Assembly (NCBI GenBank): GCA_963663865.1 | Contig: OY760686.1 | Span: 1,088,001-1,152,000, forward strand | Length of the DNA stretch: 64,000 nucleotides | Source of the DNA: Spirochaetota bacterium | Lineage (GTDB): Bacteria > Spirochaetota > UBA4802 > UBA5550 | Direction of reading: 5' to 3' | Shown here: in pieces, positions 3,140-17,533 of the stretch | Layout: each line of letters begins with the position of its first letter | Position numbering within the stretch: the stretch's first letter is position 1 | Position numbers and translations under genes: made by a program | The notes under the pieces: model-generated | Database searches by the model: none | What the model was told of the DNA's origin: nothing | Seen by the model: only the letters and a program-made list of their open reading frames with translations

Positions 3140-3679
3140 TTACTGTTTCCCGGTTCTGTCAATACACTTTTTAAAAATGCGTCTGAAGACGGCCTTAATG
3201 CCCGCTATAATGATAATCGCGCTTACAAGTCCGGAAAGAGAGTAAACAAGGCCTTCAGTTGTAAGCGGAAAGCCGGGTACAAAATTCTGAAGAGTCGATT
3301 TCAGTATGTCCGGATAGATGTTAGCAAGAAAAGTGGTGAATTTGCTCAAGCCCTCTGAAGCTGACAGCTCCTTTAGAGCGGAGGATATTTCGGCAAGCCT
3401 CTCGACGTTAGCGCTCATGTCCTTTCCGGTCAAAATGAAATCTGTGACCCCGGAGTCAAGAAACACCCTGATATATGATGACAGATCCTTGCCGCTTGCC
3501 GAGGCAGCATCGCGGTACTGCTGAACGACACGGCTCAGTTCGTCGACATGGCCGCCGAGCCTCTGAATGTACTGGGCTATGAGCTGCGGAATCTGGGCGG
3601 CTATTACAGCGCCTGCTGCGGCAGCTGCCCTGTCGGCTATTGTACCCAGGAACCTTATCGGCGCCGTAATCTTCCGCAT
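3140..3679 (-). CDS. DUF2937-like membrane protein
   Basis: QIPQLIAQYIQRLGGHVDEL motif; start at MRKIT chosen for GAGGA RBS. Confidence 0.7.
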   Translation of the reverse strand: MRKITAPIRFLGTIADRAAAAAGAVIAAQIPQLIAQYIQRLGGHVDELSRVVQQYRDAASASGKDLSSYIRVFLDSGVTDFILTGKDMSANVERLAEISSALKELSASEGLSKFTTFLANIYPDILKSTLQNFVPGFPLTTEGLVYSLSGLVSAIIIIAGIKAVFRRIFKKCIDRTGKQ

Positions 3680-3696: not shown

Positions 3697-4110
3697 TCAT
3701 ACAGTCAAACTGCCGAAATTCGCCATGTTTTCTGAATCCATTACGCATACGGCTTCAATGCCGCCCCTGATATTGTAAACGGTCTTTACTGACAGCCTGG
3801 CCGGCTTGAGGCTTGCCGCCAGGTCTTTGAAAATGCGGTCGGTGGCGGCTTCCTGATATATCCCGGCGTCCCTGTACGAAATAAAGTAGTATTTGAGTGA
3901 TTTAAGCTCAACAATCGCCCTGCCAGGGACGTAAACTATCTCGACCCTTGCTATATCCGGCAGCCCGGAAAATGGGCAAACCGCGCTGAACTCTTCTGTT
4001 ATGTATGTTATCTCCTGGGGCAAACCATTGTAGGGAATTGTCTCAAGAAAGTCGGCTCTTATGCAGCCTTCGTCTTTGAATTCGAATATTCTTCCTTCGG
4101 GTACTGGCAT
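3697..4110 (-). CDS. queF: 7-cyano-7-deazaguanine (preQ0) reductase, unimodular type
   Basis: [13 protein letters not shown] catalytic Cys/Asp and QueF motif ELKSLKYY. Confidence 0.9.
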
Positions 4111-4140
4111 TGTTTTCTCCGGTTTGGGTATGCTGGTGTA

Positions 4141-4743
4141 TTAGTGAGAATTATGATCTTCGGAGATTTCTCCGAAGGTTACCGTCCTGTCTTCCGCTAC
4201 GGAAATAGAAAGGCCGCAGTCCGGGCACATGAAGTCACCATCCTCCCTTATCTTAATAAGGGCTCCGCAGCGGGGACATTCCACAATAAAGGGGGGGATA
4301 TATTCACTGACAGCCGGCTCTTCTGTTTTGGTTTCAGCTGTGTCAGGTTCGGGTTCTACTGTATCTGTCGGCTGAAAGGTCACGGAGATTTCGGAATGAG
4401 TATCGGCAGCTTCAATCGCTTCAACTCTGCTGGACGCTGTCTTAAGTATCCCGTCAAATCCGAGTGCTGAGAACAGCGATGTAATCTCCGGGTTAAGTGA
4501 AAAGAGGATAAAGCAGCCTCCCGCCTGGGTGATCCGCCTTTCCAGATATAGCAGCAGGCCGATTCCCGCTGAGCTGAAGAACTCAATGCCTTCCGCGTCG
4601 AGAAGAATCGAAACGGCTCCGTCATCCGAAAGGGTGCTTATGTATGCGTCAAGATCGGGAGCGCTCCCGCTGTTAATTGGACCTGCCGGTTTGACAATCG
4701 CGGCTGTCCCGTCCAGGATGAGCATGTGGCTTATCTCTGTCAT
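4141..4743 (-). CDS. STAS (anti-anti-sigma) domain fused to a Zn-ribbon
   Basis: STAS motif FFSSAGIG; C-terminal CPRC...CPDC. Confidence 0.8.
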   Translation of the reverse strand: MTEISHMLILDGTAAIVKPAGPINSGSAPDLDAYISTLSDDGAVSILLDAEGIEFFSSAGIGLLLYLERRITQAGGCFILFSLNPEITSLFSALGFDGILKTASSRVEAIEAADTHSEISVTFQPTDTVEPEPDTAETKTEEPAVSEYIPPFIVECPRCGALIKIREDGDFMCPDCGLSISVAEDRTVTFGEISEDHNSH

Positions 4744-5801
4744 TATATCCTCTCAATTTTACGCCCTGCCGGGATGGGATCCTTGACCTTTTTTTCCTGC
4801 TTCCCGTTTCTGTCCCGGCGGCTGACAAGGCTGCCGTGCGGAACGGGCTCTGCGCAGCCGGATTCATCGGAATCTTCCAGCCGGAGCCTGTCAAGTTCAA
4901 TCGTAATGGAACCGTCCGGCTTTTCGATTATCCTTACTTCTCGGGCTTCCCGCGGGACAGGGCGAAAGGTTTCACGCGCCGGTGCGGGCACTGGCTCAGC
5001 TTCGTGTTCCGCGGCCGGGGTTTTTATCTCCGGAAGCTCATCGGTATCAATAAAAGCTGATCTTTGCCGGATAGACCTGTATCTAAGGAATACGAATATG
5101 GAAAGAAGGAGAGCTACAAGAGCTGAGCCCGAAGCGCATAATATAAGGTTCCTTTTGAGAACAGGAATCTGTTCCAGCAGGTAGTCCGAAATCTGTTTTT
5201 TGCTGATGATGAGGCTTACGGTCCCAACGGGTTCGCCCCTGTTGTAAACAGCCCGGCTTGCGATCCATGCCGTGCTTTTAATCCCCGAATACATGTATTG
5301 AGATATGTAATTTCTTATTTCGGGAGTGAACGCCGGTTTTCCGGTTATCAGGTTGTAGTCAGTAAAGAGGGTTTCGGCTTTGCCTTCCTTCGAGCAGGCA
5401 AGAATGAGGTCCATGTTGAAGTATATCCTGTCGTTGAGGATGTTGCCTTTTGCGGCCCTTACGGGCTCGCTGTCAATGGAAGAGATAATTGTGCCGTCGT
5501 TGAGAACGAAAAGCGCCTCTGCGGCCGAGAGGCCATCAAGCCTTCCCTTGAAAAGAGATGAAACCTTCCCCGGCTTTTTAGGGTCGTAGGAGAGCGAGGC
5601 TATATCCGCAAGGGATGAAGCCGCAGAAGAATACCGATTTTTGATGTAGTCTGTGGTTTTTTCAAGCTCATTCTTAACGGAGCTGTAGGTGAAGTAGCCT
5701 GTAAGCCCGGCGGAAACGCAGAGCTGAACCGTAAATACGAGAAGGAATATTCCGAATGGGAAAATACTTTTCCTGCTTTTGGGTATCTGTTTTTCTGTCA
5801 T
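4743..5801 (-). CDS. Membrane protein with periplasmic sensor-like domain between two TM helices
   Basis: Two hydrophobic helices flanking a ~180 aa domain; low-complexity cytoplasmic tail. Confidence 0.7.
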   Translation of the reverse strand: MTEKQIPKSRKSIFPFGIFLLVFTVQLCVSAGLTGYFTYSSVKNELEKTTDYIKNRYSSAASSLADIASLSYDPKKPGKVSSLFKGRLDGLSAAEALFVLNDGTIISSIDSEPVRAAKGNILNDRIYFNMDLILACSKEGKAETLFTDYNLITGKPAFTPEIRNYISQYMYSGIKSTAWIASRAVYNRGEPVGTVSLIISKKQISDYLLEQIPVLKRNLILCASGSALVALLLSIFVFLRYRSIRQRSAFIDTDELPEIKTPAAEHEAEPVPAPARETFRPVPREAREVRIIEKPDGSITIELDRLRLEDSDESGCAEPVPHGSLVSRRDRNGKQEKKVKDPIPAGRKIERI

Positions 5802-5964
5802 ATTATTATTGCCGATTATAAAGTTTGCGTATACGCAGATTATCGGTTCAAATAGGTGTTGTGCTGACTAAAAAATGCGTTTCCAGTCGGTTATAACCTT
5901 TTCAGGAAGAGAGACAGAATTGAGTGAAGAAATCAAGAGCTTTTCAAAACAGCCGGAGGTCGTG

Positions 5965-6627
5965 ATGAGTAATAATGAAAAAATTGAGGAGTGGGATTGG
6001 GGCCTGGCAAAGCCGACAGGACAGCCTGTTGACAGGAGGGAGGCGCACGCAAAGGGCATCGCTCATGAAGGAGTCCATCTGTGGATTGTCAGGGACTCAG
6101 ACAATGGCCCGGAGCTTCTTTTTCAGAGAAGGGCCCGTCATAAAGACAGCTATCCGGGGTATTTTGATATTACGGTGGGCGGTCATGTCCCCTATGGTTT
6201 GACAGAAGGCAAGGTCCAGAAGGAGGCCCGCGAGGAATTGGGGATTGATCCGCCGGAGGAGTCTCTTATCAGCCTGGGGTGCTACAGGTACGAGGAGCAT
6301 GAAGAACAGGGGCGCTTTCACAGAGAGTTCCAGCAGGTGTATTTGCTGCCCGATGCAAGGCCACTTGACGAGTACAGCTTCGCCGATGGAGAGGTGGACG
6401 CCCTCTGCGCGGTGCCTGTTGATGACCTAAAAAGGATGATGCTGGGCAGTCACAGCTTCAGCGCTGTATGTTTTTATGGAAAGGATATGGGCAATTGCGT
6501 TTTAACAGAGAAGGACTTTCATCCGTTGCTTTTTGCTGAATCGATGAAGGCTTACATGGAGGTTCTGCTTGACGCTGTTGATGTTTTTTTAAGCGGAAAA
6601 GGACGATATCCCCAGATGAGGTGCTAA
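5965..6627 (+). CDS. NUDIX hydrolase (IPP isomerase type 1-like)
   Basis: H..GIAHEGVHLW, QRRA..K..YPG.FD..VGGH, KEAREELG; GGAGG RBS before ATG 5965. Confidence 0.85.
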   Translation: MSNNEKIEEWDWGLAKPTGQPVDRREAHAKGIAHEGVHLWIVRDSDNGPELLFQRRARHKDSYPGYFDITVGGHVPYGLTEGKVQKEAREELGIDPPEESLISLGCYRYEEHEEQGRFHREFQQVYLLPDARPLDEYSFADGEVDALCAVPVDDLKRMMLGSHSFSAVCFYGKDMGNCVLTEKDFHPLLFAESMKAYMEVLLDAVDVFLSGKGRYPQMRC

Positions 6628-6682
6628 AAACAGAATAAAAGCAATAAAAAAAGGCATTTTGTTAAACAAAAGCATAATTAGC

Positions 6683-6710
6683 TTGACTTTTTGGGAATGC
6701 CGGTTATGTT
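6683..6710 (+). promoter_or_regulatory. Putative sigma70 promoter of csp
   Basis: TTGACT-N16-TATGTT about 135 nt upstream of the ATG. Confidence 0.5.
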
Positions 6711-6844
6711 GTACTCAGGTGATAAAGCTCTGTATAAATCTTCTATGAATCTTACCCCGTTCAAAACCAGGTAAATTAGTAGCAATGATTGGCATAGCCG
6801 ATAGGGCAATTCTCCTGAAAAAATCAAATAGGAGTCAGTAGTAT

Positions 6845-7045
6845 ATGACACAGGGAACAGTTAAGTGGTTCAACGATCAAAAAGGCTTTGGATTCATCAC
6901 AGCTAATGATGGACAGGATTACTTTGTACACCACACAAGCATTCTGGCCGACGGGTTTAAGACGCTTCCTGAAGGTGCACAGGTGCAGTTTGAAATTGAA
7001 AAAGGCGAAAAGGGACCGAGAGCAGTACAGGTTTCTGTTATATAA
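6845..7045 (+). CDS. cspA: Cold-shock protein
   Basis: GTVKWFN.KGFGFI and FVH RNP motifs. Confidence 0.95.
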
Positions 7046-7070
7046 TAAATATATAATCCTTTTGAAACAC

Positions 7071-7099
7071 AGGCCCGCGTTAATTGACGCGGGCTTTTT
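7071..7099 (+). terminator. Intrinsic terminator
   Basis: GCCCGCGT...ACGCGGGC stem followed by a T tract. Confidence 0.8.
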
Positions 7100-7257
7100 A
7101 GTGTCTGTTGACCTCCGGAATTTTGATCATTTTTTACAGTCTCTGAAAAAAAAGAATACAACAGGAGATTTTATATATTAAATTAATTATACTGCCTCCG
7201 CAATTATTTATTGACGGACAGGGACGAATGTATATTTATTATACTGCTGGTAAATAG

Positions 7258-9279
7258 ATGAATAAACAGATCATATTAACTTCAGGCGCTCAAAAATATG
7301 CCGATGTTCCGGAGTATTCTGATTTTCGCGTTATAGGTCCGTCAGAAATAGACGGATACTTCGCGGAGTCTGCAATCGGAGAGGACAGTCCCTACGTTCT
7401 TGTTTTTTGTAGTGTTGAAGAATACCCTGTAATTCAGGGCAGGCTTGAGACGCATGCTAATGGCGATGTGATCAGTGCGTTTGTGCTCTTCAGCGGCGAT
7501 GGAGAGCACAGTGTTTTTCCGGGCGGCTTTCCGGAAAACATCTCCGATTTGCGTACGGGTCCTGTTTCAAAGGCGGAGCTGCGCTTTATAGTCGAAAGGA
7601 CTTTCCGTTTTATGGAGACAGTTTCAAGAGGCCTAAAAAGAGCCGAGGAGTACAGGCTTGGTCTCGAGGACACGCGCCGCGACCAGGAGGACCTGATAAA
7701 CATAGGAAGGGCCCTGTCTAACGAGAAGGACCCCGAGAAGCTTCTTACTCTAATGCTTTTTCTCAGTAAAAAGATTACCGGAGCGGACGCGGGAAGCATC
7801 TATCTTGTCGAGGATAATCCTGAGGGTGGAAAGAGGCTTCGGTTTAAAACATCGCATACCTTTTCAAGGGAGCTTCCCCTTAACGAGTTCGTTATGCCCA
7901 TGGACAAGAACTCAATAGCCGGATATGTTGCCGTTACGGGCGAGGTGCTCAATATTCCTGATGTCTACAGGCTGAGCGAAACCGGAGAATTTCCCTTTAC
8001 CCACAACTCATCAATTGATATACAGCACAACTACCTAACGCGGTCGATGCTCGTTGTTCCAATGCGCAACTACCAGGATGAGGTTATCGGTGTTATTCAG
8101 CTTATTAACAGCAAGGAGTCAGGAAACTCATCCGGAGAAGCTGAAGGCAACGAAGCCTACGGCATTATGCTGATTACCCCGGATGATTTTGACCGTTATG
8201 TGGTCGCCTTTGACCAAAAGTACAACAGAATTCTTGAGGCGATTGCCGGGCAGGCAGCCATAGCTATTGAAAACAACCGGATGATCAAGCAGATAGAGCT
8301 TCAGTTCGAGCAGTTCGTTAAGGCTTCGGTAAAGGCTATAGAATCCCGTGACCCGGCGACTTCAGGCCATTCGTTCAGAGTAGCAGAGATATGCAAACAG
8401 ATGGCTTTTGCCGTGAACAGCATTCATGAAGGTTATCTCAAGGATATTTACTTTACGCCTACTATGATCAGAGAGCTTGAGTTCGCGGCGCTTCTCCATG
8501 ACTTCGGAAAGGTTTATATCGACCTTGCTATTTTCAGAAAAGAGAAGAAACTTTTCCCGCGCGACTTTGAAAATCTGATGATAAGGCTTGATTATCTGTA
8601 CAGATGCGTAGAATTACAGTTTACCGAAAGAATTGCCGGTGTGCCGCGTGATGACAGAGAGAAGATCAACAAGCTTGTTGATGAGAAGCTCAGTATGCTT
8701 GAGAAGATACTTGAAATAAAGGGAAGACTGATCAGGCTGAATGAACCGGCAGTCACAGAGGAAGATCCGGAAGTTGTACTGGATGCTGTACTCTCCGATA
8801 TGGCAGGGATGGAATGCGTCACTGTCGAAGGCAGCGATATGAAGGTGATAACCGACGTCGACAGACTCAATCTTTCGATAAGACGAGGGAGCCTCAATCC
8901 GGAAGAGAGACGCGAGATAGAGACTCATGTCGTTCACACATATAACTTCGTTAAGAAGATTCCATGGCCCTCGGGATACAAAAATATTCCAGAAATAACA
9001 CTGAGGCATCATGAAAAACTTAATGGGAAGGGATATCCCGACGGGCTGAAGGGACGCGATAGCACCCCTGTCCAGGCCAGGATGATGGCAATCGCGGACA
9101 TCTACGACGCCCTTGCATCACCGGACAGGCCTTACAAGAAGGCTGTCCCCAGGGAGAAGATACTCGACATTCTCTGGGAGGAAGCTGACAAGGGCTATCT
9201 TGACCCGGATCTGGTCGAGATTTTTATCAGCTTCAGGGTCTACGACAGAGTCGATCCTGACATGTTCAGGCAGATGTAG
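7258..9279 (+). CDS. GAF + HD-GYP cyclic dinucleotide phosphodiesterase
   Basis: GAF (SIAGYVA, RSMLVVPM, QLIN), LHDFGK, HHEKLNGKGYP, ADIYDAL..DRPYK. Confidence 0.9.
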   Translation: MNKQIILTSGAQKYADVPEYSDFRVIGPSEIDGYFAESAIGEDSPYVLVFCSVEEYPVIQGRLETHANGDVISAFVLFSGDGEHSVFPGGFPENISDLRTGPVSKAELRFIVERTFRFMETVSRGLKRAEEYRLGLEDTRRDQEDLINIGRALSNEKDPEKLLTLMLFLSKKITGADAGSIYLVEDNPEGGKRLRFKTSHTFSRELPLNEFVMPMDKNSIAGYVAVTGEVLNIPDVYRLSETGEFPFTHNSSIDIQHNYLTRSMLVVPMRNYQDEVIGVIQLINSKESGNSSGEAEGNEAYGIMLITPDDFDRYVVAFDQKYNRILEAIAGQAAIAIENNRMIKQIELQFEQFVKASVKAIESRDPATSGHSFRVAEICKQMAFAVNSIHEGYLKDIYFTPTMIRELEFAALLHDFGKVYIDLAIFRKEKKLFPRDFENLMIRLDYLYRCVELQFTERIAGVPRDDREKINKLVDEKLSMLEKILEIKGRLIRLNEPAVTEEDPEVVLDAVLSDMAGMECVTVEGSDMKVITDVDRLNLSIRRGSLNPEERREIETHVVHTYNFVKKIPWPSGYKNIPEITLRHHEKLNGKGYPDGLKGRDSTPVQARMMAIADIYDALASPDRPYKKAVPREKILDILWEEADKGYLDPDLVEIFISFRVYDRVDPDMFRQM

Positions 9280-10298: not shown

Positions 10299-11675
10299 AT
10301 GAAATTCTTTCAATGTCTTGCGGCGTCTTTCGATTATTTGGCGAAAAGCATCTTAATTTTCGGTGTCTTTTTCTGTGTTTCAGTTTTTTCGTCATGCGGT
10401 GATGATGATAACAGCAGCATTACACCCGGTGCTGCAAGCCTTTCGGCACTTAGAATTGGGCCGGGGAAACTTACTCCAGCGTTTAATCCGGCCATTACTG
10501 AGTACAGTACCTCAGTTGACTATTTTGCCGAAAAATTTAGGGTTACTCCTTCTGGTGATGATTCCGCAAGTGCGATTGAGGTCAACGGAGTCGGGGTTCA
10601 ATCCGGTGAGCATGCGGGTCTTGTCGCTTTGAGAGAAGGATCGAATGCGGTGGAAATTGACGTTCTTGATGTGGATGGAAACGTAAAAACCTACACTGTG
10701 AATATTACAAGAAAGACTGAGACTGAATACCCGTATTTTGAACTGGATTATACTGCCGGTCAGGATAACGAAATGACCATTGAGTATGATGGAATAGAGC
10801 GAAGATTTTTTTATTATGTCCCTGCTGATTTTGATTCAGAAGCTTCTCATTCGGTAATTGTTGTGCTTCACGGTTTCAATCAGGATGTAAGCAGTATTAT
10901 TCAGACTTATGGAAGCATGAAGACATTGGCAGACGATGATGGAACTATCATAATATTTCCTGAATCGACCGGCAGCAGTGCTGAATCAACACTGTCGTGG
11001 AACCAGCTGTATGGAGACCTCAGTTCGATTTATGAAACTCTTAATGAGGTCGATGATATAGGTTATATTTCATATCTGATTAATACAATGCTGGGAAACA
11101 TGAACGGCGATCCGGACCGGGTGTATGTTACAGGAACATCCATGGGCGGGGCAATGACTTTTGCCCTATCAACATTTATTCCGGGTAAATTCGCTGCTGC
11201 CGCGCCTGTCATAATGCAGGTAGCGCAGGATTTCGTCGCTCAATTCCAGGATGCCCAGCCGCTTCCGTATATGGTCATAACAGGAACGGCTGACCCGCTT
11301 GTCGATCCGGATGGAACTGATACCGGTACAATAAAAAATGTTTCTCAGGCAGCGAGTATTGAATACCTTAAGATAAGGAACGGCCTGACTGGGGACGGTG
11401 AAATGACAGCTCTTCCTGACACTGTAACGGAAGTATTTCAGGGAGAGGACGCCAACTCATATATTGAACAGTATGTCTGGGAAAGCAGCGCAGGAAACGA
11501 TCTTTTCTATCTGAAAGTAGTTAACGGCGGACACTGGCTTCCTTCGTATATGGGCGGTATGGCCATGGATCCCTCAAATCTTGGTGGATGGGACGGAAGT
11601 TATCTGGGGCACTGGAACAATGATTACGACGCAGCCGCAGGAATTTACAACTTTTTTATGAATTATACAAGATAG
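10299..11675 (+). CDS. Lipoprotein: cadherin-like domain + alpha/beta-hydrolase (PHB depolymerase/LpqP-like esterase)
   Basis: Lipobox FSSC; LTPAFNP..KTYTVNITR cadherin-like region; VLHG, DDIGY, GTSMGG nucleophile elbow, GTADPLV, GGHW. Confidence 0.8.
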   Translation: MKFFQCLAASFDYLAKSILIFGVFFCVSVFSSCGDDDNSSITPGAASLSALRIGPGKLTPAFNPAITEYSTSVDYFAEKFRVTPSGDDSASAIEVNGVGVQSGEHAGLVALREGSNAVEIDVLDVDGNVKTYTVNITRKTETEYPYFELDYTAGQDNEMTIEYDGIERRFFYYVPADFDSEASHSVIVVLHGFNQDVSSIIQTYGSMKTLADDDGTIIIFPESTGSSAESTLSWNQLYGDLSSIYETLNEVDDIGYISYLINTMLGNMNGDPDRVYVTGTSMGGAMTFALSTFIPGKFAAAAPVIMQVAQDFVAQFQDAQPLPYMVITGTADPLVDPDGTDTGTIKNVSQAASIEYLKIRNGLTGDGEMTALPDTVTEVFQGEDANSYIEQYVWESSAGNDLFYLKVVNGGHWLPSYMGGMAMDPSNLGGWDGSYLGHWNNDYDAAAGIYNFFMNYTR

Positions 11676-12790: not shown

Positions 12791-13049
12791 GTTAGTTTTC
12801 TCCTATGGATATCATATTAAAACATGCGATTTTTCGCAACAAAAGAAATGAGGACCTGTGCCCTGAACAGCGAATTATTCCGTCAGGGCATTGTGCTTTT
12901 TGCGGTCATTATTGTCTGGTATGGGTGGGGATGATGTCAGCTTAATCAATTTCATTTTTTCAGAATCTATATATAATGTCTGAAAAAGTATGTCATTTTT
13001 CCTCACTGAATTACTCATAGTAAATAATGAAAGCTCATATAAAATCTTT

Positions 13050-13352
13050 GCAAGAGCCGGTGTTCAGAACTTCGCCTTCTATCTTCTCAGCGATGGAGGC
13101 AGCGGTATCAACGAAGACTGTCCGGGCGGGAAAACGTATAATGTGACAGGAATAGGGGTCGAGAATGCCGGCGCGATAGCCATGTACTCAAACTGCAACC
13201 TGCTGACCTCAAACGCGGATTTCCAGGAGTCAGCAGACGCATGGTTGCTTGCTTCATATCTCTTTTATCTTGAGGGGATGGACTGGTATCTGGATAATGT
13301 TGTTTCTACCTGGTGTGCTGTGGGGGTTATTCCTCAGTTGAATGGACATTAA
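13050..13352 (+). pseudogene. 3' fragment of a thermolysin-like (M4) peptidase, copy 1
   Basis: ARAGVQNFAFYLLSDGG...VTGIG...LLTSNADF...WCAVGV resembles the thermolysin C-terminal domain; no HEXXH; the 20 codons upstream are AT-rich and non-homologous. Confidence 0.7.
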
Positions 13353-13374
13353 TATGCTTAAAGGGAGATGGAAT

Positions 13375-14469
13375 ATGAAAATAACAGCTTTAATTATATC
13401 AGCTATGTTTATGCTTATATCATGTGATTCGGACACAAGCAAATCCGTGCCGGAACAGGTTGAGCCACTTGAGGGAGTATTTGTTCTTGGCTCTGTAGAT
13501 GGGAACGTGGGTTACTGGCATGATGGGGAATGGAACCAGTGTGAGGTGCCTGTTGGAGCAGATAGCTGTTCTGGTGATTCAATTTATATTACAGAATATG
13601 ATGTTTATATTGGTGGAGGTTACAGATACGCTTATAATCAATACAATTTTGTACATGTGCCCGGTTACTGGAAGAATTTGGAATGGGAACCACTTTACAC
13701 TGCTGAACCCATAGCTAGTGCTGGAGTGTTTTCTGTGACTTCATCAGATGAAGATATTTATTTTGCCGGACATTTAAATCATGAAGCATGTTATTGGAAA
13801 AACAATGATTTAATATATTTGGATGATTTTGACAATAGTAGTGTTCTTTACAAGCTGGATCCGTACATGGAAATAACATGTATAATGTCAAATAATAACA
13901 ATATTTATGGAGCCGTTCAATCTACAAAACCAGTTTACTTTAAAAATAAAAATTTAATAAGCCTTTCAATTGATGGTGTGGGGAGTTTGGAAACAGTAAT
14001 TATGCACAATGGAGATATCTACGCTGCGGGCCGATGCCATGATGTAGAAGGTAATTATTTTACGGGTTACTGGAAAAATGATGAATGGGTAGCTCTTCCT
14101 AATCCCAATTCTGATGGGAGAATAATTATTATTACCGGTATTGCTGTTTCAGGTGATGATGTTTATGTTTGTGCTTATTCTCAGGTATATGTGGAATCTG
14201 CTCATTCTATTACAATATTAAATTATTCATCTGGATACTGGAAGAATGGTAAATGGTTTGACCTCGAATCGTCGTATGGTACCCCGAAGGCAGAGGCTAT
14301 GGTCGAACACAATGGAGATATCTACATTGTCGGAGGATGTTACAGTAATTACAACTATTCATATACCAGTCACCCTTCTTTCTATGCTGGCTACTGGAAG
14401 AACGGAGACTGGAACGAACTGGGAGTTGAGGGTGAAGATGCGCTAGCTTTTGATATAGTTGTGAAGTGA
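13375..14469 (+). CDS. Lipoprotein with GYWKNG repeats (probable beta-propeller), copy 1
   Basis: GGGAG RBS, lipobox LISC, about 7 D(I/V)Y..G....YWKN repeats. Confidence 0.85.
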   Translation: MKITALIISAMFMLISCDSDTSKSVPEQVEPLEGVFVLGSVDGNVGYWHDGEWNQCEVPVGADSCSGDSIYITEYDVYIGGGYRYAYNQYNFVHVPGYWKNLEWEPLYTAEPIASAGVFSVTSSDEDIYFAGHLNHEACYWKNNDLIYLDDFDNSSVLYKLDPYMEITCIMSNNNNIYGAVQSTKPVYFKNKNLISLSIDGVGSLETVIMHNGDIYAAGRCHDVEGNYFTGYWKNDEWVALPNPNSDGRIIIITGIAVSGDDVYVCAYSQVYVESAHSITILNYSSGYWKNGKWFDLESSYGTPKAEAMVEHNGDIYIVGGCYSNYNYSYTSHPSFYAGYWKNGDWNELGVEGEDALAFDIVVK

Positions 14470-14480
14470 GTCTCATCTCA

Positions 14481-14501
14481 GCCGGTCCCTTGCGGGCCGG
14501 C
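14481..14501 (+). terminator. GC-rich hairpin after lipoprotein 1 (no clear U tract)
   Basis: GCCGGTCC...GGGCCGGC. Confidence 0.45.
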
Positions 14502-14670
14502 AGCCTCATAGGTGCTTACGCCGAATTTCTGTTCGCGTTGATGTTTCCGTAAACAAGGCTGAACATGATTACTGCTAAAGTTATGTTGAAAAAAACCGGC
14601 AAACGATTGTCATCAAAGAATCTCAATTGCTGAACGTCAAAAATTCAATGGTAATGTATTCACAAGCGCC

Positions 14671-14985
14671 CCCGACTATCATGCAAGAGCTGTTGTCCAG
14701 AACTTCGCCTTCTATCTTCTCAGTGATGGCGGCAGCGGTATAAACTACGACTGTCCGGGCGGCAAGGCGTACAATGTTACCGGAATTGGAGTCCAGAATG
14801 CCGGCGCGATCGCTATGTACTCAAACTGCAACCTGCTGACTTCAAACGCGGATTTCCAGGAGTCAGCAGACGCGTGGTTGCTTGCTTCATATCTCTTTTA
14901 TCTTGAGGGGTTTGACGATTATATGGACAACGTGGTTTCCGCCTGGTGTGCTGTGGGGGTTATTCCTCAGTTGAATGGACATTAA
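14671..14985 (+). pseudogene. 3' fragment of an M4 peptidase, copy 2 (no start codon; not in the ORF track)
   Basis: PDYHARAVVQNFAFYLLSDGG...WCAVGVIPQLNGH*; frame closed upstream by TGA at 14587 with no ATG before the fragment. Confidence 0.75.
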
Positions 14986-15007
14986 TATGCTTAAAAGGAG
15001 ATAGAAT

Positions 15008-16084
15008 ATGAAAATTTCAGTTTTAATTATATCAGCTATGTTTATGATTTTATCATGCGATTCGGATTCAGATAACACTCCGTCAGAAAGCGGGCCGGAA
15101 CAGGTTGAGCCACTTGAGGGAGTGTTTGTTTTAGGTTCTTTTGGCGGAAATATGGGTTACTGGCATGATGGTGAGTGGAATAACCTTCCGGTTTCAGATT
15201 CATGGAAAATTGGCAGAGCTTATTCATTATGTGTGTATGAAGATTCGATCTATATGGCGGGTTATGAAAGTTCTGACGGTGGTAAAAACTATAAAACGGG
15301 ATACTATGTCAACAATGAATGGGTTCAGATCAATGAGCCAAATGAATATTGGCATATATCAGATATTGAAGTTCACAACAATAAAATATATTGTGCAGGC
15401 GCATCGGGGTCTACAGCATGTTACTGGATAAACGGTGAGGTAATATTTCCTGCTGATATTGAAGGTGAATCTTATGCCAACGGGAAGATTAACTCAATAA
15501 TCGTTGAAAATGATAATGTTATAGCTGCCGGCGATAATCATGTTTTCCCAGTTTACTGGTTAAACACAGAGCCTGTACAGCTGTCTATACCTGGAGAATT
15601 AATCAATGGCAGTCTGTGGGTAGTAAGGAAATATAACGATAATATTTATACGGCAGGATGGTGTAGAAACCAGGATGGTGATTATCTTACTGGCTATTGG
15701 AGGAACGATGAATGGGTTACATTGACTAACCCGTTTTGTGAAGATGTAATACTTACGATTATCACGGGGATAGAAGTAGTTAATGATGATGTCTATGTTT
15801 GTGCATATTCTGAGGTAATAGTTGAAAGTTATTCGGAAATAACTTCAGGTTACTGGAAGAATGGAGAATGGTTTGAACTTGAGACTCCGAGAGGGACTTC
15901 AATGGCGCGAGGAATGGTAGAACATAATGGTGATATTTACATTGTTGGTTCAAGTTTTGAAAATTTTTGTAGTCTAACCGGTTCCGCATCCGCCTCTTAC
16001 GCCGGTTACTGGAAGAACGGAGAGTGGCACCCTCTTGGCGAAGAAGGAGTTCAAGCAAGTGCATTTGACATTGTCGTGAAGTAA
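15008..16084 (+). CDS. Lipoprotein with GYWKNG repeats (probable beta-propeller), copy 2
   Basis: AGGAG RBS, lipobox ILSC; paralog of 13375-14469. Confidence 0.85.
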   Translation: MKISVLIISAMFMILSCDSDSDNTPSESGPEQVEPLEGVFVLGSFGGNMGYWHDGEWNNLPVSDSWKIGRAYSLCVYEDSIYMAGYESSDGGKNYKTGYYVNNEWVQINEPNEYWHISDIEVHNNKIYCAGASGSTACYWINGEVIFPADIEGESYANGKINSIIVENDNVIAAGDNHVFPVYWLNTEPVQLSIPGELINGSLWVVRKYNDNIYTAGWCRNQDGDYLTGYWRNDEWVTLTNPFCEDVILTIITGIEVVNDDVYVCAYSEVIVESYSEITSGYWKNGEWFELETPRGTSMARGMVEHNGDIYIVGSSFENFCSLTGSASASYAGYWKNGEWHPLGEEGVQASAFDIVVK

Positions 16085-16094
16085 TTTCTGCAAT

Positions 16095-16129
16095 GAGGCC
16101 GGCCTTTAAAGGGCCGGGCTCTTTGTTTT
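16095..16129 (+). terminator. Intrinsic terminator
   Basis: CCGGCC...GGCCGG stem followed by TCTTTGTTTT. Confidence 0.6.
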
Positions 16130-16163
16130 CCAAAACAGTTGATCATAAATCAGGGTCTTAATA

Positions 16164-17486
16164 GAGAGTATCAGATGTTTTGTGTAAATAGCCTTTGATT
16201 ATAATGGTACTCTGTCTCCAAAATATACTGCGAACTGGTTGATAGCAGCACCCCAATCTCTGATTGGCATAGTCCATTTTTTCTCGGCTTTCGTCAATGC
16301 CAAATACAGCACCTTAAAGATTGAATCATCTGTAGGAAATGCCGCTCTTTTCTGGGTTACTTTCCGTAGGCTTGAATTCAAGGATTCAATTGCGTTGGTA
16401 GTATAAATTGCTTTTCGAATATCTGCCGGATAAGCGAAAAATTCGTTGAGGTTTTCCCAATTGGCTCGCCATGACTTTGAAATCATCGGATATTTACCAT
16501 CCCACTTTTTAGAAAATTCATCAAGCGAAGCCAAACCAGCCTTTTCGGAAGGGGCAGAATATATGCTTTTCAGATCGGTACATATCGCCTTTCGTTCTTT
16601 CCATGATACATATTTTATTGAATTGCGTATCATATGAACTATGCACAGCTGAATCCTGGTCTCTGGGAATACGGCATTAACCGCATCTGGAAACCCTTTC
16701 AGTCCATCCATGCAAGCGATGAAGACATCTTCGATTCCTCGATTTTTAAGTTCATTTACAACCTGAAGCCAAAATTTAGCTCCTTCTGAATCGCCAATCC
16801 ATAAGCCTAGAACTTCTTTTTTGCCCTGCATATTGACCCCAATAGCCGTATACACTGATTTATTTGATACTTTGCCGTCAGTTCGGCCTTTGACCACGAT
16901 AGCGTCAAAATACACTATAGGGTACACAGGATCAAGTGGACGGGATTGCCATTCCAGAACATCTTTTATTATCTCATTGGTGACGGTGCTGATCAGGTCA
17001 GGGGAAACCTCTACTCCATAGATATCTTCAAGATGGCCCTGAATATCTCTGGTTGTCATTCCCAACCCGTACATCGATATGATTTTCTCATCAAACAGCT
17101 CGAATCGTTTTTGATGCTTCTTTACTATTCTGGGTTCGAATTCAGCATTACGGTCTCGAGGAATATCAATTAGAATTTCACCATTGTTTGTTAAGAGCTT
17201 CTTGCTACTTCGACCATTACGAGCGTTGGTGCTTTTGCCTGCTGATCTTTCATTTTTGTCGTAACCAAGATGTTCTGCCATCTCAGCTTTCATCGCTGTT
17301 TCGATAATCCTTTTGGTTAATTGCTGAATAAGGCCGTCTTTCCCGGTAATCTGTTCAGGTGTCAGTGCCTTAAAATCCACATCCTCAAGCAATTCATTAA
17401 TGATTGCATCTTTGTCCATAGCCATATTTTTCTCCTTATCTATTGATTAATAATATAGCTATTTACACAAATCTTTTTACACTCTC
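16164..17486 (-). mobile_element. IS256-family insertion sequence (1323 bp)
   Basis: Imperfect 29-bp terminal IRs (GAGAGT...TTTGTGTAAATAGC); 8-bp target duplication TCTTAATA at 16156-16163 and 17487-17494. Confidence 0.95.
16199..17425 (-). CDS. IS256 (Mutator-type) DDE transposase
   Basis: RNG, PRDR, YFDAI, DGLKGF, QLCIVH..RN, YTTNAIESLN. Confidence 0.97.
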   Translation of the reverse strand: MAMDKDAIINELLEDVDFKALTPEQITGKDGLIQQLTKRIIETAMKAEMAEHLGYDKNERSAGKSTNARNGRSSKKLLTNNGEILIDIPRDRNAEFEPRIVKKHQKRFELFDEKIISMYGLGMTTRDIQGHLEDIYGVEVSPDLISTVTNEIIKDVLEWQSRPLDPVYPIVYFDAIVVKGRTDGKVSNKSVYTAIGVNMQGKKEVLGLWIGDSEGAKFWLQVVNELKNRGIEDVFIACMDGLKGFPDAVNAVFPETRIQLCIVHMIRNSIKYVSWKERKAICTDLKSIYSAPSEKAGLASLDEFSKKWDGKYPMISKSWRANWENLNEFFAYPADIRKAIYTTNAIESLNSSLRKVTQKRAAFPTDDSIFKVLYLALTKAEKKWTMPIRDWGAAINQFAVYFGDRVPL

Positions 17487-17533
17487 TCTTAATAATCTAC
17501 ATGCTGAAACACGAGTCCATTCGGAAGTATACA

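Follow-up and report, generated by a model that had tools for sequence, protein, structure and literature searches.

The window analysed here is a stretch of 64,000 nucleotides from the genome of an uncultured member of the Spirochaetota, in which two tandem cassettes on the plus strand each join a headless 3' fragment of an M4 peptidase gene to an intact lipoprotein gene. In cassette A, a leader unrelated to M4 (12984..13049) precedes a 198-nt homology arm (13050..13247), which spans 66 codons in the C-terminal domain of M4 and is 88% identical to a full-length M4 gene 406 kb away, and an orphan-type tail (13248..13352), which comprises the last 34 M4 codons and TAA and is 90% identical to the tail of cassette B. 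Cassette B opens with an extra M4-like frame of 31 codons (14590..14682) that contains YHARA and lacks an ATG, GTG or TTG start, and it continues with its own 198-nt arm (14683..14880; 89% identical to the full-length gene) and an orphan-type tail with TAA (14881..14985). After the TAA that terminates each M4 fragment, 22 nt containing GGAGAT lead to the lipoprotein reading frame, lipoA at 13375..14469 (364 aa) or lipoB at 15008..16084 (358 aa). The units share a direct repeat of 300 nt with 89% identity (13049-13348 and 14682-14981), which bears out the tandem headless-M4 and lipoprotein units of the initial annotation. The same annotation assigned about 100 codons of a peptidase 3' end to each unit; the M4-like frame of fragment B, however, runs open over 131 codons (14590-14985) and includes the His that corresponds by alignment to the active-site residue of neutral protease.

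Both frames match Peptidase_M4_C (Pfam PF02868) above its cut-off of 24.4 bits (40.9 bits, E 2.6e-10, and 42.5 bits, E 8e-11), covering profile positions 80-165 of 165 only, and their assignment to the M4 C-terminal domain is therefore upheld. Neither fragment has the HEXXH zinc site or the downstream Glu ligand, and both features are missing from the entire 64-kb window as well; the two fragments are the only ones of 11 genomic PF02868 matches to fall inside it, in agreement with the earlier statement that no full-length M4 gene is present. Judged by sequence, each fragment represents part of an M4 gene and not a peptidase. In an alignment with neutral protease 1esp, the active-site His (in GGVHTNSG) is kept in B (YHARA) and is replaced by Phe in A and by Ser in O1, an orphan cassette at the distant locus. 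The arm begins one codon past this position, and fragment A likewise begins right after it. The extra frame of B shows 56% nucleotide identity to the full gene, equal to background, and aligns weakly at the protein level with the paralogue M4_2716. The leader of A, which is the same as the leader of O1 at 53 of 66 nt, provides an ATG (12990) that opens a 120-codon ORF, and the matching stretch in O1 contains a stop codon; A and O1 have the truncation junction marked by this leader in common. The 120-codon ORF was considered as a conserved small gene and rejected, because the O1 leader has a stop and B has no start.

LipoA, with the lipobox LISC, belongs to a family of YWKNG-repeat beta-propellers and has a core type of its own, with 25-45% identity to the cores of the others, and lipoB, also with a lipobox, is 84-86% identical to the lipoprotein of O1; the two are 47% identical to each other. 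Nine DNA repeats of the GYW(K/H)(N/D)G type are present. The AlphaFold2 model of lipoB is a 7-bladed propeller (pLDDT 87.6), for which a fold search retrieved generic Kelch-like propellers only (TM 0.40 to Keap1). Neither lipoprotein reaches the cut-off of any family in Pfam and NCBIfam, and a protein atlas search with the lipoprotein returned unnamed clusters only, with no likeness to any named family. The lipoprotein genes are mosaic: the 5' 40 codons show a dS of 0.24-0.63 and the 3' ends are conserved, and between types the cores are 24-46% identical in amino acids, with a dS >1.2 or saturated. A related assembly, known through its proteins, holds two more core types with unchanged gene ends.

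A GC hairpin had been reported after each unit. Hairpins are found on the plus strand after both lipoprotein genes, but only the one after lipoB (16099..16117) is terminator-like, with a T-run, and flagged in the terminator scan; the GC-rich hairpin after lipoA (about 14481..14501), which was read from the sequence, has no T-run and is unflagged. The sequence at 16082-16159 shares 90% identity with that downstream of the lipoprotein gene in the full-length operon. An insertion sequence of the IS256/Mutator family on the minus strand (16158..17492; transposase 16199-17425; 35-nt inverted repeats) directly abuts the array, and the genome contains three full copies and one partial copy of this element. 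The promoter scan yielded 15 candidates, which is not above the 10.0 +/- 3.7 expected in shuffles.

Four copies of the repeat are present in the genome, in A, B, O1 and the full-length M4 gene at the distant locus (L015, 3772-5721). This gene encodes 649 aa with an intact HEYGH zinc site (H433, E434, H437), Glu454 as the downstream ligand and His548, and is followed after 20 nt by the lipoprotein gene lipoM (5742-6809). Downstream lies the third orphan cassette, O1, with a headless M4 fragment at about 7027-7395 and lipoO1 at 7385-8515 of the same locus. The full-length M4 gene and lipoM form one of five pairs of an M4 gene with a paralogous lipoprotein gene in this genome, all on the same strand with gaps of 20-56 nt (26-56 nt in the four other M4 paralogues), and a stop-to-ATG spacing of 20-22 nt is common to the full operon and the orphans. 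Full-length pairs of the kind that the initial annotation had called for therefore exist, although within this genome and not in relatives, and one of them shares the 3' sequence of the fragments and has its own orphan cassette; with the Peptidase_M4_C match, two of the three refuting conditions of that annotation are decided in its favor. Across the five pairs, M4 identity follows lipoprotein identity (r = 0.84, reached by 2 of 120 permutations), which indicates that the pair duplicates as a unit. Additionally, short tandem repeats are found at the 5' end of three of the eight long-frame M4 paralogues: an 8-mer repeated 2.5 times lies between the Shine-Dalgarno sequence plus ATG and the reading frame of the full-length M4, and two sister genes carry a 7-mer repeated 3.9 times and (AG)15.5, respectively.

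The tight same-strand linkage of the five pairs, together with their unit-wise duplication and the lipoboxes found on both members, which would place the two proteins in the same compartment, is what favors the reading of the lipoprotein as a cognate inhibitor, immunity protein or specificity subunit of the M4 protease, with the orphans as stockpiled partner alleles in the manner of emfourin and protealysin or CdiI and CdiA-CT. A precedent is the protealysin-emfourin operon, in which an M4 protease gene is accompanied by an operon-encoded inhibitor (PMC9505478). The arrangement here is alike in that the M4 gene is followed, after a small gap, by a partner gene in the same operon, but unlike in that operon, the partner is a 7-bladed propeller lipoprotein with no detectable relation to any named family. 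The lipoprotein bears no sequence or fold likeness to an inhibitor among the families and folds searched and resembles generic Kelch-like propellers, and the part of M4 that varies between cassettes consists of the last 34 residues, which form C-terminal helices and not a separate toxin domain. Furthermore, A, B and O1 combine one tail type with at least two lipoprotein types, which indicates that the tail does not co-vary with the partner and that no code links tail and lipoprotein. Outside this lineage, none of 79 metagenome loci with homologous lipoproteins has an M4 gene in the available flanks (42 of the 79 have at least 2 kb upstream). Predicting the complex of mature M4 (205-649) and the neighboring lipoprotein (20-355) was uninformative either way (score 0.09, mark 0.32). 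The inhibitor, immunity or specificity role proposed by the initial annotation finds no support in these results, and we regard it as improbable.

In other genomes, matches to the lipoprotein occur in 4 of 41, this genome included, and the three relatives with a match have no M4 gene within flanks of roughly 1.5 kb. The same-strand ORFs upstream of the metagenome lipoprotein genes, of which 29 of 31 were scanned (L044 and L071 were left out as duplicates of L042 and L070), are heterogeneous, with Peptidase_C39_2 appearing twice. With the M4 protein as query, a search for related loci retrieved one locus, from Bacteroidales and unrelated, and a 32-nt arm pattern had no matches in the genome contig collection. 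Among 5.8 billion protein clusters, no full-length M4 with an orphan-type tail was found, the sole match being the M4 of this genome itself at 79% identity. The analysis covers one fully read genome, the single representative of its genus in the collection searched.

Comparison with the full-length gene reveals sharp boundaries of the arms. The arms are identical to the full gene at 174-177 of 198 nt (88-89%), whereas identity falls to 56% (B) and 64% (A) in the 90 nt upstream and to 55% between the tails of B and the full gene; the upstream flanks and the B tail equal background, defined as the identity of unrelated sequence under the same aligner. On the left, the arm ends at one and the same codon in all three orphans, although the sequence beyond this edge is still M4-like in B and unrelated in A and O1. 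The variable end of the protease comprises the last 34 residues, in the C-terminal helices of M4. Comparisons between orphans give a dN/dS of 0.05-0.13 at a dS of 0.39-0.50, with a synonymous excess of p = 1.5e-6 to 7.6e-11.

A dN/dS this far below 1 would be expected if the fragments were translated in place, either as a free M4 C-terminal subdomain or as an upstream ORF of 56 codons from which ribosomes are delivered to the lipoprotein gene starting 22 nt further on. The ATG of A with its 120 codons, the in-frame Met located 56 codons ahead of the stop in all copies and the 20-22 nt spacing kept in the full operon and the orphans could be accommodated in the same way. However, the leader that gives A its ATG contains a stop in O1, and B has no ATG, GTG or TTG before the internal Met, so that a usable start is absent from two of the three headless fragments. 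The synonymous bias is as strong upstream of this sole conserved in-frame Met as downstream of it, and a signal peptide is lacking, which makes translation in place very improbable. A synonymous bias that extends to positions where translation is impossible needs time spent in translated genes or copying from them.

Copying between loci is visible in the lipoprotein genes. LipoB and lipoO1 share a near-identical tract of about 405 nt (15297..15701, plus strand; exact runs of 231 and 159 nt) within sequence that has diverged to a dS of 0.3-0.6, which indicates recent gene conversion between cassette B of the window and the locus 406 kb away. The tract joins two orphans, not an orphan and the full gene.

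These data also bear on a plain segmental duplication, in which the breakpoint fell inside M4 and the units were later moved or duplicated, possibly with the assistance of the IS element. The lipoproteins would then be independently expressed paralogues, and the M4 pieces would be dead relics that are kept alike by passive gene conversion, with an arm that has no role. A duplication starting inside M4 yields exactly the observed layout, the junction common to A and O1 fits a single truncation followed by copying, and an IS adjoins the array; the lipoprotein ORFs are all complete, with their own Shine-Dalgarno sequence and signal peptide, and their dN/dS of 0.26-0.43 reflects ordinary purifying selection. 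The failure to find a full-length gene with the orphan tail in the protein clusters is also in keeping with this. However, dead relics would be expected to diverge no more slowly than the neighboring genes, yet the arms are 88-92% identical whereas the lipoprotein cores are saturated. Additionally, the differences between arms are strongly synonymous-biased even where they are untranslatable, and the left edge of the arm at the same codon in B and in A and O1, despite the different sequence beyond it, speaks against this duplication as well. We therefore consider it an unlikely origin of the array, although less so than the partner role discussed above.

The cassettes are structurally similar to the orphan modules of polymorphic toxins. 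In CDI and Rhs loci, a full-length gene and its downstream partner gene are followed by orphans, 3' fragments without a start in which homology to the full gene gives way to a divergent C-terminal end, each with an intact partner gene; the orphans occur in tandem in one orientation and are associated with transposases, and models propose that they originate by displacement and are used by recombination in the homologous stretch (PMC4927057). The distant locus likewise has a full gene and partner followed by a start-less 3' fragment and intact partner in the same orientation, with two more units in the window, and each orphan retains a conserved arm (88-89%) followed by a divergent end (55% for the B tail, equal to background). 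An IS element adjoins the window array, as in CDI orphan arrays (PMC4927057). The homology arm and the CDI/Rhs analogy of the initial annotation hold in this structural respect, with a 198-nt arm and visible past recombination. Unlike in the CDI/Rhs loci, no toxin domain is present, and the end that varies consists of the last 34 residues in the helical domain of the protease itself; the highly variable element is the partner lipoprotein, a propeller of 340 aa, and not a pair of toxin and immunity protein; and no secretion system takes part, part of the array is 406 kb from the full gene, and recombination into the full gene is not observed.

Silent-cassette systems, such as pilE/pilS of Neisseria, vlsE of Borrelia and the tprK donor sites of Treponema pallidum, store promoterless partial cassettes of one expressed gene. 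With these systems the array has in common that variable cores lie between conserved flanks, that several copies are stored, that conversion tracts cover segments of the copies and, for the latter two, that the host is a spirochaete. In contrast, the stored copies here are complete genes with a Shine-Dalgarno sequence, start and signal peptide, there are three copies only, and no conversion into an expression site is seen. The dentilisin operon of Treponema denticola (prcB-prcA-prtP) encodes a surface lipoprotein protease of the subtilisin class with accessory lipoproteins. The co-encoding of a spirochaete protease lipoprotein and accessory lipoproteins is shared with the operon described here, but the protease here is of the M4 class and the accessory proteins are unrelated; we know of no orphan modules of the dentilisin operon.

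Taken together, the cassettes are probably orphan 3'-end modules of a contingency-type M4 and beta-propeller lipoprotein operon that were made and reshuffled by homologous recombination. Each module comprises the 198-nt arm and the last 34 M4 codons, followed by a Shine-Dalgarno sequence and an entire lipoprotein gene. Modules may arise when a new arm-tail-lipoprotein segment enters the expressed operon at its 3' end by recombination and shifts the old end downstream, which would correspond to the displacement proposed for CDI orphans. The stored modules could remain open to crossover in the arm on the upstream side and, on the downstream side, in the terminator or the conserved 3' end of the lipoprotein gene, and such a crossover would swap the lipoprotein allele together with the last 34 residues of the protease. 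The window array may be a copy of such modules that lies apart from the full gene, beside the IS256-family element. Diversification of the exposed lipoprotein partner of the contingency-type protease is the likely driver. The signs of exchange between an orphan and the full gene are indirect, namely the sharp homology boundaries, the synonymous-biased arms and the conversion tract between orphans. Every orphan lipoprotein gene is complete, with a Shine-Dalgarno sequence, an ATG and a signal peptide with lipobox, and may thus be expressed in place, in which case switching would be unneeded.

Contigs of the sequencing runs X1, X4, X5 and X6, compared with the full locus, contain no joint attributable to a tail swap, in short-read assemblies that break at repeats and drop rare variants. 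Contigs of X1, X4 and X5 also include pieces with the upstream junction of B or with lipoA-type sequence, and X6 represents a strain with 93-96% identity whose contigs break within the repeats. Two joints in X6, 5873>7577 and 3996>7249, have no locus assigned, and the same applies to a contig of X5 that departs from the arm at 5522; none of the contigs of these runs is evidence for or against switching.

Among polymorphic toxins, CDI and Rhs are known to have orphan 3'-end modules that carry a homology arm (PMC4927057), and the same orphan architecture appears here around a secreted-type metalloprotease and an uncharacterized family of propeller lipoproteins. No case of such modules for a protease-lipoprotein pair was found in the literature, in a search that was not aimed at that question and that covered full text only in part. 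The array also shows directly, at the sequence level, that loci separated by 406 kb have recombined. A more tentative and rather unlikely proposal is module swapping outside the toxin/immunity setting, in which a phase-variable surface M4 protease would trade its last helices and its propeller lipoprotein for stored alleles by crossover in the arm. In that case the cell could alter the antigenic face or the target or inhibitor specificity of the protease complex, and orphan modules would offer a general strategy for the diversification of operons with two genes. Should the expressed gene take no part in exchange, the array would be a clear example of gene conversion preserving dead gene pieces; should it take part, such exchange would constitute a novel means by which spirochaetes vary their surface and would identify the YWKNG lipoproteins as proteins that work together with M4 proteases.

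Two consecutive units lie in the window, each consisting of a headless M4 peptidase 3' fragment and an intact lipoprotein gene 22 nt downstream, as described in the initial annotation. The fragments of the two units (cassettes A and B) contain a direct repeat of 300 nt (13049-13348 and 14682-14981; 89% identity), and the open frames around the repeat copies span 122 (A) and 131 (B) codons from stop to stop. Both frames match positions 80-165 of the 165-position Pfam profile Peptidase_M4_C with 40.9 and 42.5 bits (cut-off, 24.4 bits), which bears out their assignment to the M4 C-terminal domain; among NCBIfam models, both fragments matched the Leptospira thermolysin model partially and far under its cut-off. 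Each fragment is closed by TAA, and the 22-nt gap, which contains GGAGAT, leads into a lipobox-bearing lipoprotein ORF (lipoA, 13375-14469; lipoB, 15008-16084). The two lipoproteins are 47% identical, and a GC hairpin is present 3' of lipoA and a terminator-like hairpin 3' of lipoB. An IS256/Mutator-family element with 35-nt inverted repeats (16158-17492) lies directly downstream of the cassettes and is one of three full copies in the genome that are 98-100% identical (the others at 176964-178287 and 2241528-2242851 of the host contig); a 221-nt partial copy (267228-267447) is located approximately 350 nt from the 265-kb M4 gene. Cassette A is bordered by an lrgA/lrgB-like pair, just upstream of which is the gene of a putative 458-aa lipoprotein (10299-11675) in which a Cadherin-like beta-sandwich domain precedes weak esterase/alpha-beta-hydrolase matches.

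A Peptidase_M4_C search of the genome confirmed that the window contains no M4 gene with HEXXH. The host is an uncultured spirochaete whose genome is a single contig of 3.16 Mb, with the window at 1088001-1152000; its FliG is 50% identical to FliG of Leptospirales MAGs, and one lipoprotein homologue carries the source name 'Spirochaetes bacterium'. A search of this genome with the 304-nt repeat revealed four copies, the third being another headless fragment (O1) and the fourth (nt 1-197 only, 89%) sitting inside a 649-aa M4 gene (3772-5721 in the numbering of the excised locus L015) that carries an FTP propeptide motif, HEYGH and the conserved Glu and His residues. The lipoprotein gene downstream of this M4, lipoM (355 aa), starts 20 nt past the M4 stop codon; the full-length M4-lipoprotein pair sharing the fragment sequence, for which a search had been proposed, is thus found in the same genome. 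Downstream of lipoM are O1 and its lipoprotein, lipoO1 (365/376 aa), which is 84-86% identical to lipoB. The order is M4, lipoM and the fragment-lipoO1 unit at 1.506-1.511 Mb, and the fragment-lipoA unit, the fragment-lipoB unit and the IS at 1.101-1.105 Mb.

When the four copies are aligned, homology with the full gene sets in at one and the same codon throughout, the codon next to that of the His matching the active-site His of neutral protease; it continues for 198 nt with 174-177 identical positions and then ends abruptly. The flanking identities to the full gene are 55% for the tail of B (the last 34 codons) and 56% (B) and 64% (A) for the 90 nt upstream, which is the background level that the aligner in use gives for unrelated sequence. 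In structure, the proposed homology arm from the protease gene is borne out, and it has sharp edges. The tails of A and B are 90% identical to each other. Upstream of the arm, A and O1 have non-M4 sequence in common (53/66 nt), which indicates that they stem from a single truncation; the corresponding region of B is in a different, weakly M4-like frame. Short-read contigs of four sequencing runs, which break at the repeats, contained no joint ascribable to a tail swap at the full-length locus. One X5 contig (L015 5412-5522) exits the arm at 5522 into sequence resembling the host contig at approximately 882.4 kb (27/30 nt), and one X6 contig joins L015 3996 to 7249, so that M4 codon 75 runs, with 2 additional nucleotides, into the middle of an orphan arm; such joints may reflect either rearranged variants or artefacts of assembly.

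The headless pieces have diverged in the manner of translated genes. In comparisons among the orphans, dS is 0.39-0.50 and dN/dS 0.05-0.13; for the arm by itself, all six pairs, full-gene pairs included, have dN/dS of 0.05-0.09. The excess of synonymous changes (p = 1.5e-6 to 7.6e-11) is also seen over the 40 codons that precede the single conserved in-frame Met, and B has no ATG, GTG or TTG ahead of this Met; the leader that supplies the ATG of A holds a stop in O1. Because this signature is combined with a lack of group-wide translatability, the simplest account is that the fragments diverged mostly within full-length genes or were copied from such genes. In a displacement model, 3' ends would have been pushed behind the operon, leaving start-less modules. 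This model accounts for three features: the arms have sharp edges, the fragments show coding-type divergence, and O1 lies immediately behind the operon.

Neither lipoA nor lipoB passes any family cut-off in Pfam or NCBIfam, and outside this lineage the lipoprotein family is rare and unnamed, with only 37 proteins matching at E <= 1e-5 in a search of 5.8 billion clusters; a protein atlas search returned unnamed clusters. AlphaFold2 (24-row alignment) predicts a 7-bladed beta-propeller (pLDDT 87.6, pTM 0.85), for which the closest PDB structures are generic Kelch domains (TM 0.40) that indicate no function. The genes are mosaics: dS is 0.24-0.63 in the first 40 codons and >1.2 or saturated in the cores, which have 24-46% amino acid identity between types, and the last 19-27 residues are almost invariant. 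A related assembly, known from proteins alone, contains one B-like allele and two additional core types that share these ends, one of the two being truncated (224 aa). lipoB and lipoO1 are 88% identical overall, with two exactly matching stretches (231 and 159 nt; window 15297-15701) bordered by segments at dS 0.3-0.6, which indicates a recent conversion tract linking loci that lie 406 kb from each other and shows that the copies still recombine.

PF02868 occurs at 11 places in the genome, comprising 8 long frames and the 3 fragments. A paralogous same-strand lipoprotein follows within 20-56 nt in five of the long M4s (288, 1507, 1610, 2386 and 2716 kb) and is missing in three (one at 265 kb and two twin copies, at 2366 and 2369 kb); four of the lipoprotein paralogues are solitary genes. 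Pairwise identity among the five M4s is correlated with that among their five lipoproteins (r = 0.84; reached by 2 of 120 permutations), which is expected from a pair duplicating as a unit and is not by itself proof of co-evolution. Outside the lineage, an M4 beside the lipoprotein family was found in 0 of 79 metagenome loci, 42 of which have at least 2 kb upstream, and the upstream genes are heterogeneous. Lipoboxes are present on both M4 proteins and lipoproteins, which would place them in a common membrane-anchored compartment. Gene linkage is the basis for regarding the lipoprotein as an inhibitor or immunity partner of the protease, for which protealysin-emfourin (PMC9505478) provides a precedent. 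The pairing of one tail type with different lipoprotein types speaks against a recognition code between tail and partner, and we consider an inhibitor or immunity role improbable.

The full-length M4 gene has an SD (GGAGGGAG) and an ATG (L015 3702) in a frame other than that of M4, and an 8-nt repeat, TCACGGAC (x2.5, L015 3716-3735), lies between this start and the M4 frame (L015 3690-3780 corresponds to approximately 1505690-1505780 of the host contig). By our reading, one added 8-nt unit would fuse this ATG to a typical lipoprotein signal peptide, and the repeat is a candidate slipped-strand switch that would currently be OFF. The 5' end of the 288-kb M4 contains a 7-nt repeat (x3.9; 3363-3389 of excised locus L012), and that of the 2716-kb M4 contains (AG)15.5 (3396-3426 of excised locus L007), which corresponds to an (SL)n stretch of the signal peptide. 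The 1610-kb M4 (1610190-1615183) is split by a 1.26-kb insertion, an identical second copy of which lies at 60.5 kb; the head of this M4 (1613163-1613474) stands behind another lipoprotein paralogue, giving the order lipoprotein, interrupted M4, lipoprotein. The twin M4s (2366322-2371284) are identical tandem copies with the same in-frame TAA soon after HEFSH, and the 2386-kb M4 (2386921-2388903) has an internal in-frame TGA; all three are likely pseudogenes.

Sequence comparison demonstrates the cassette architecture and past recombination, and we favor, with some reservation, the reading that the cassettes are orphan modules shaped by recombination; their function and switching we infer. No full-length M4 with an orphan-type tail was found in the protein database (5.8 billion clusters), and the orphan lipoprotein genes are intact ORFs that might be expressed in place, both of which count against an active switch. 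That the cassettes are plain relics of duplication is a rather improbable reading, though it ranks above the other rivals, the inhibitor or immunity role among them. With respect to orphan modules shaped by recombination, the analogy to CDI/Rhs loci holds in layout: CDI/Rhs orphans (PMC4927057) are 3' ends that lack a start, have been displaced and retain homology with the full gene. They form tandem arrays accompanied by transposases and are interpreted either as fossils left by serial replacement or as a reserve able to recombine with the full gene. The analogy fails in content, since a toxin is absent from the M4 cassettes, the variation falls on the partner lipoprotein, and in the protease it is confined to the last 34 residues. 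The M4 cassettes are therefore not assigned to CDI/Rhs and would instead represent the same genome strategy on a different operon.
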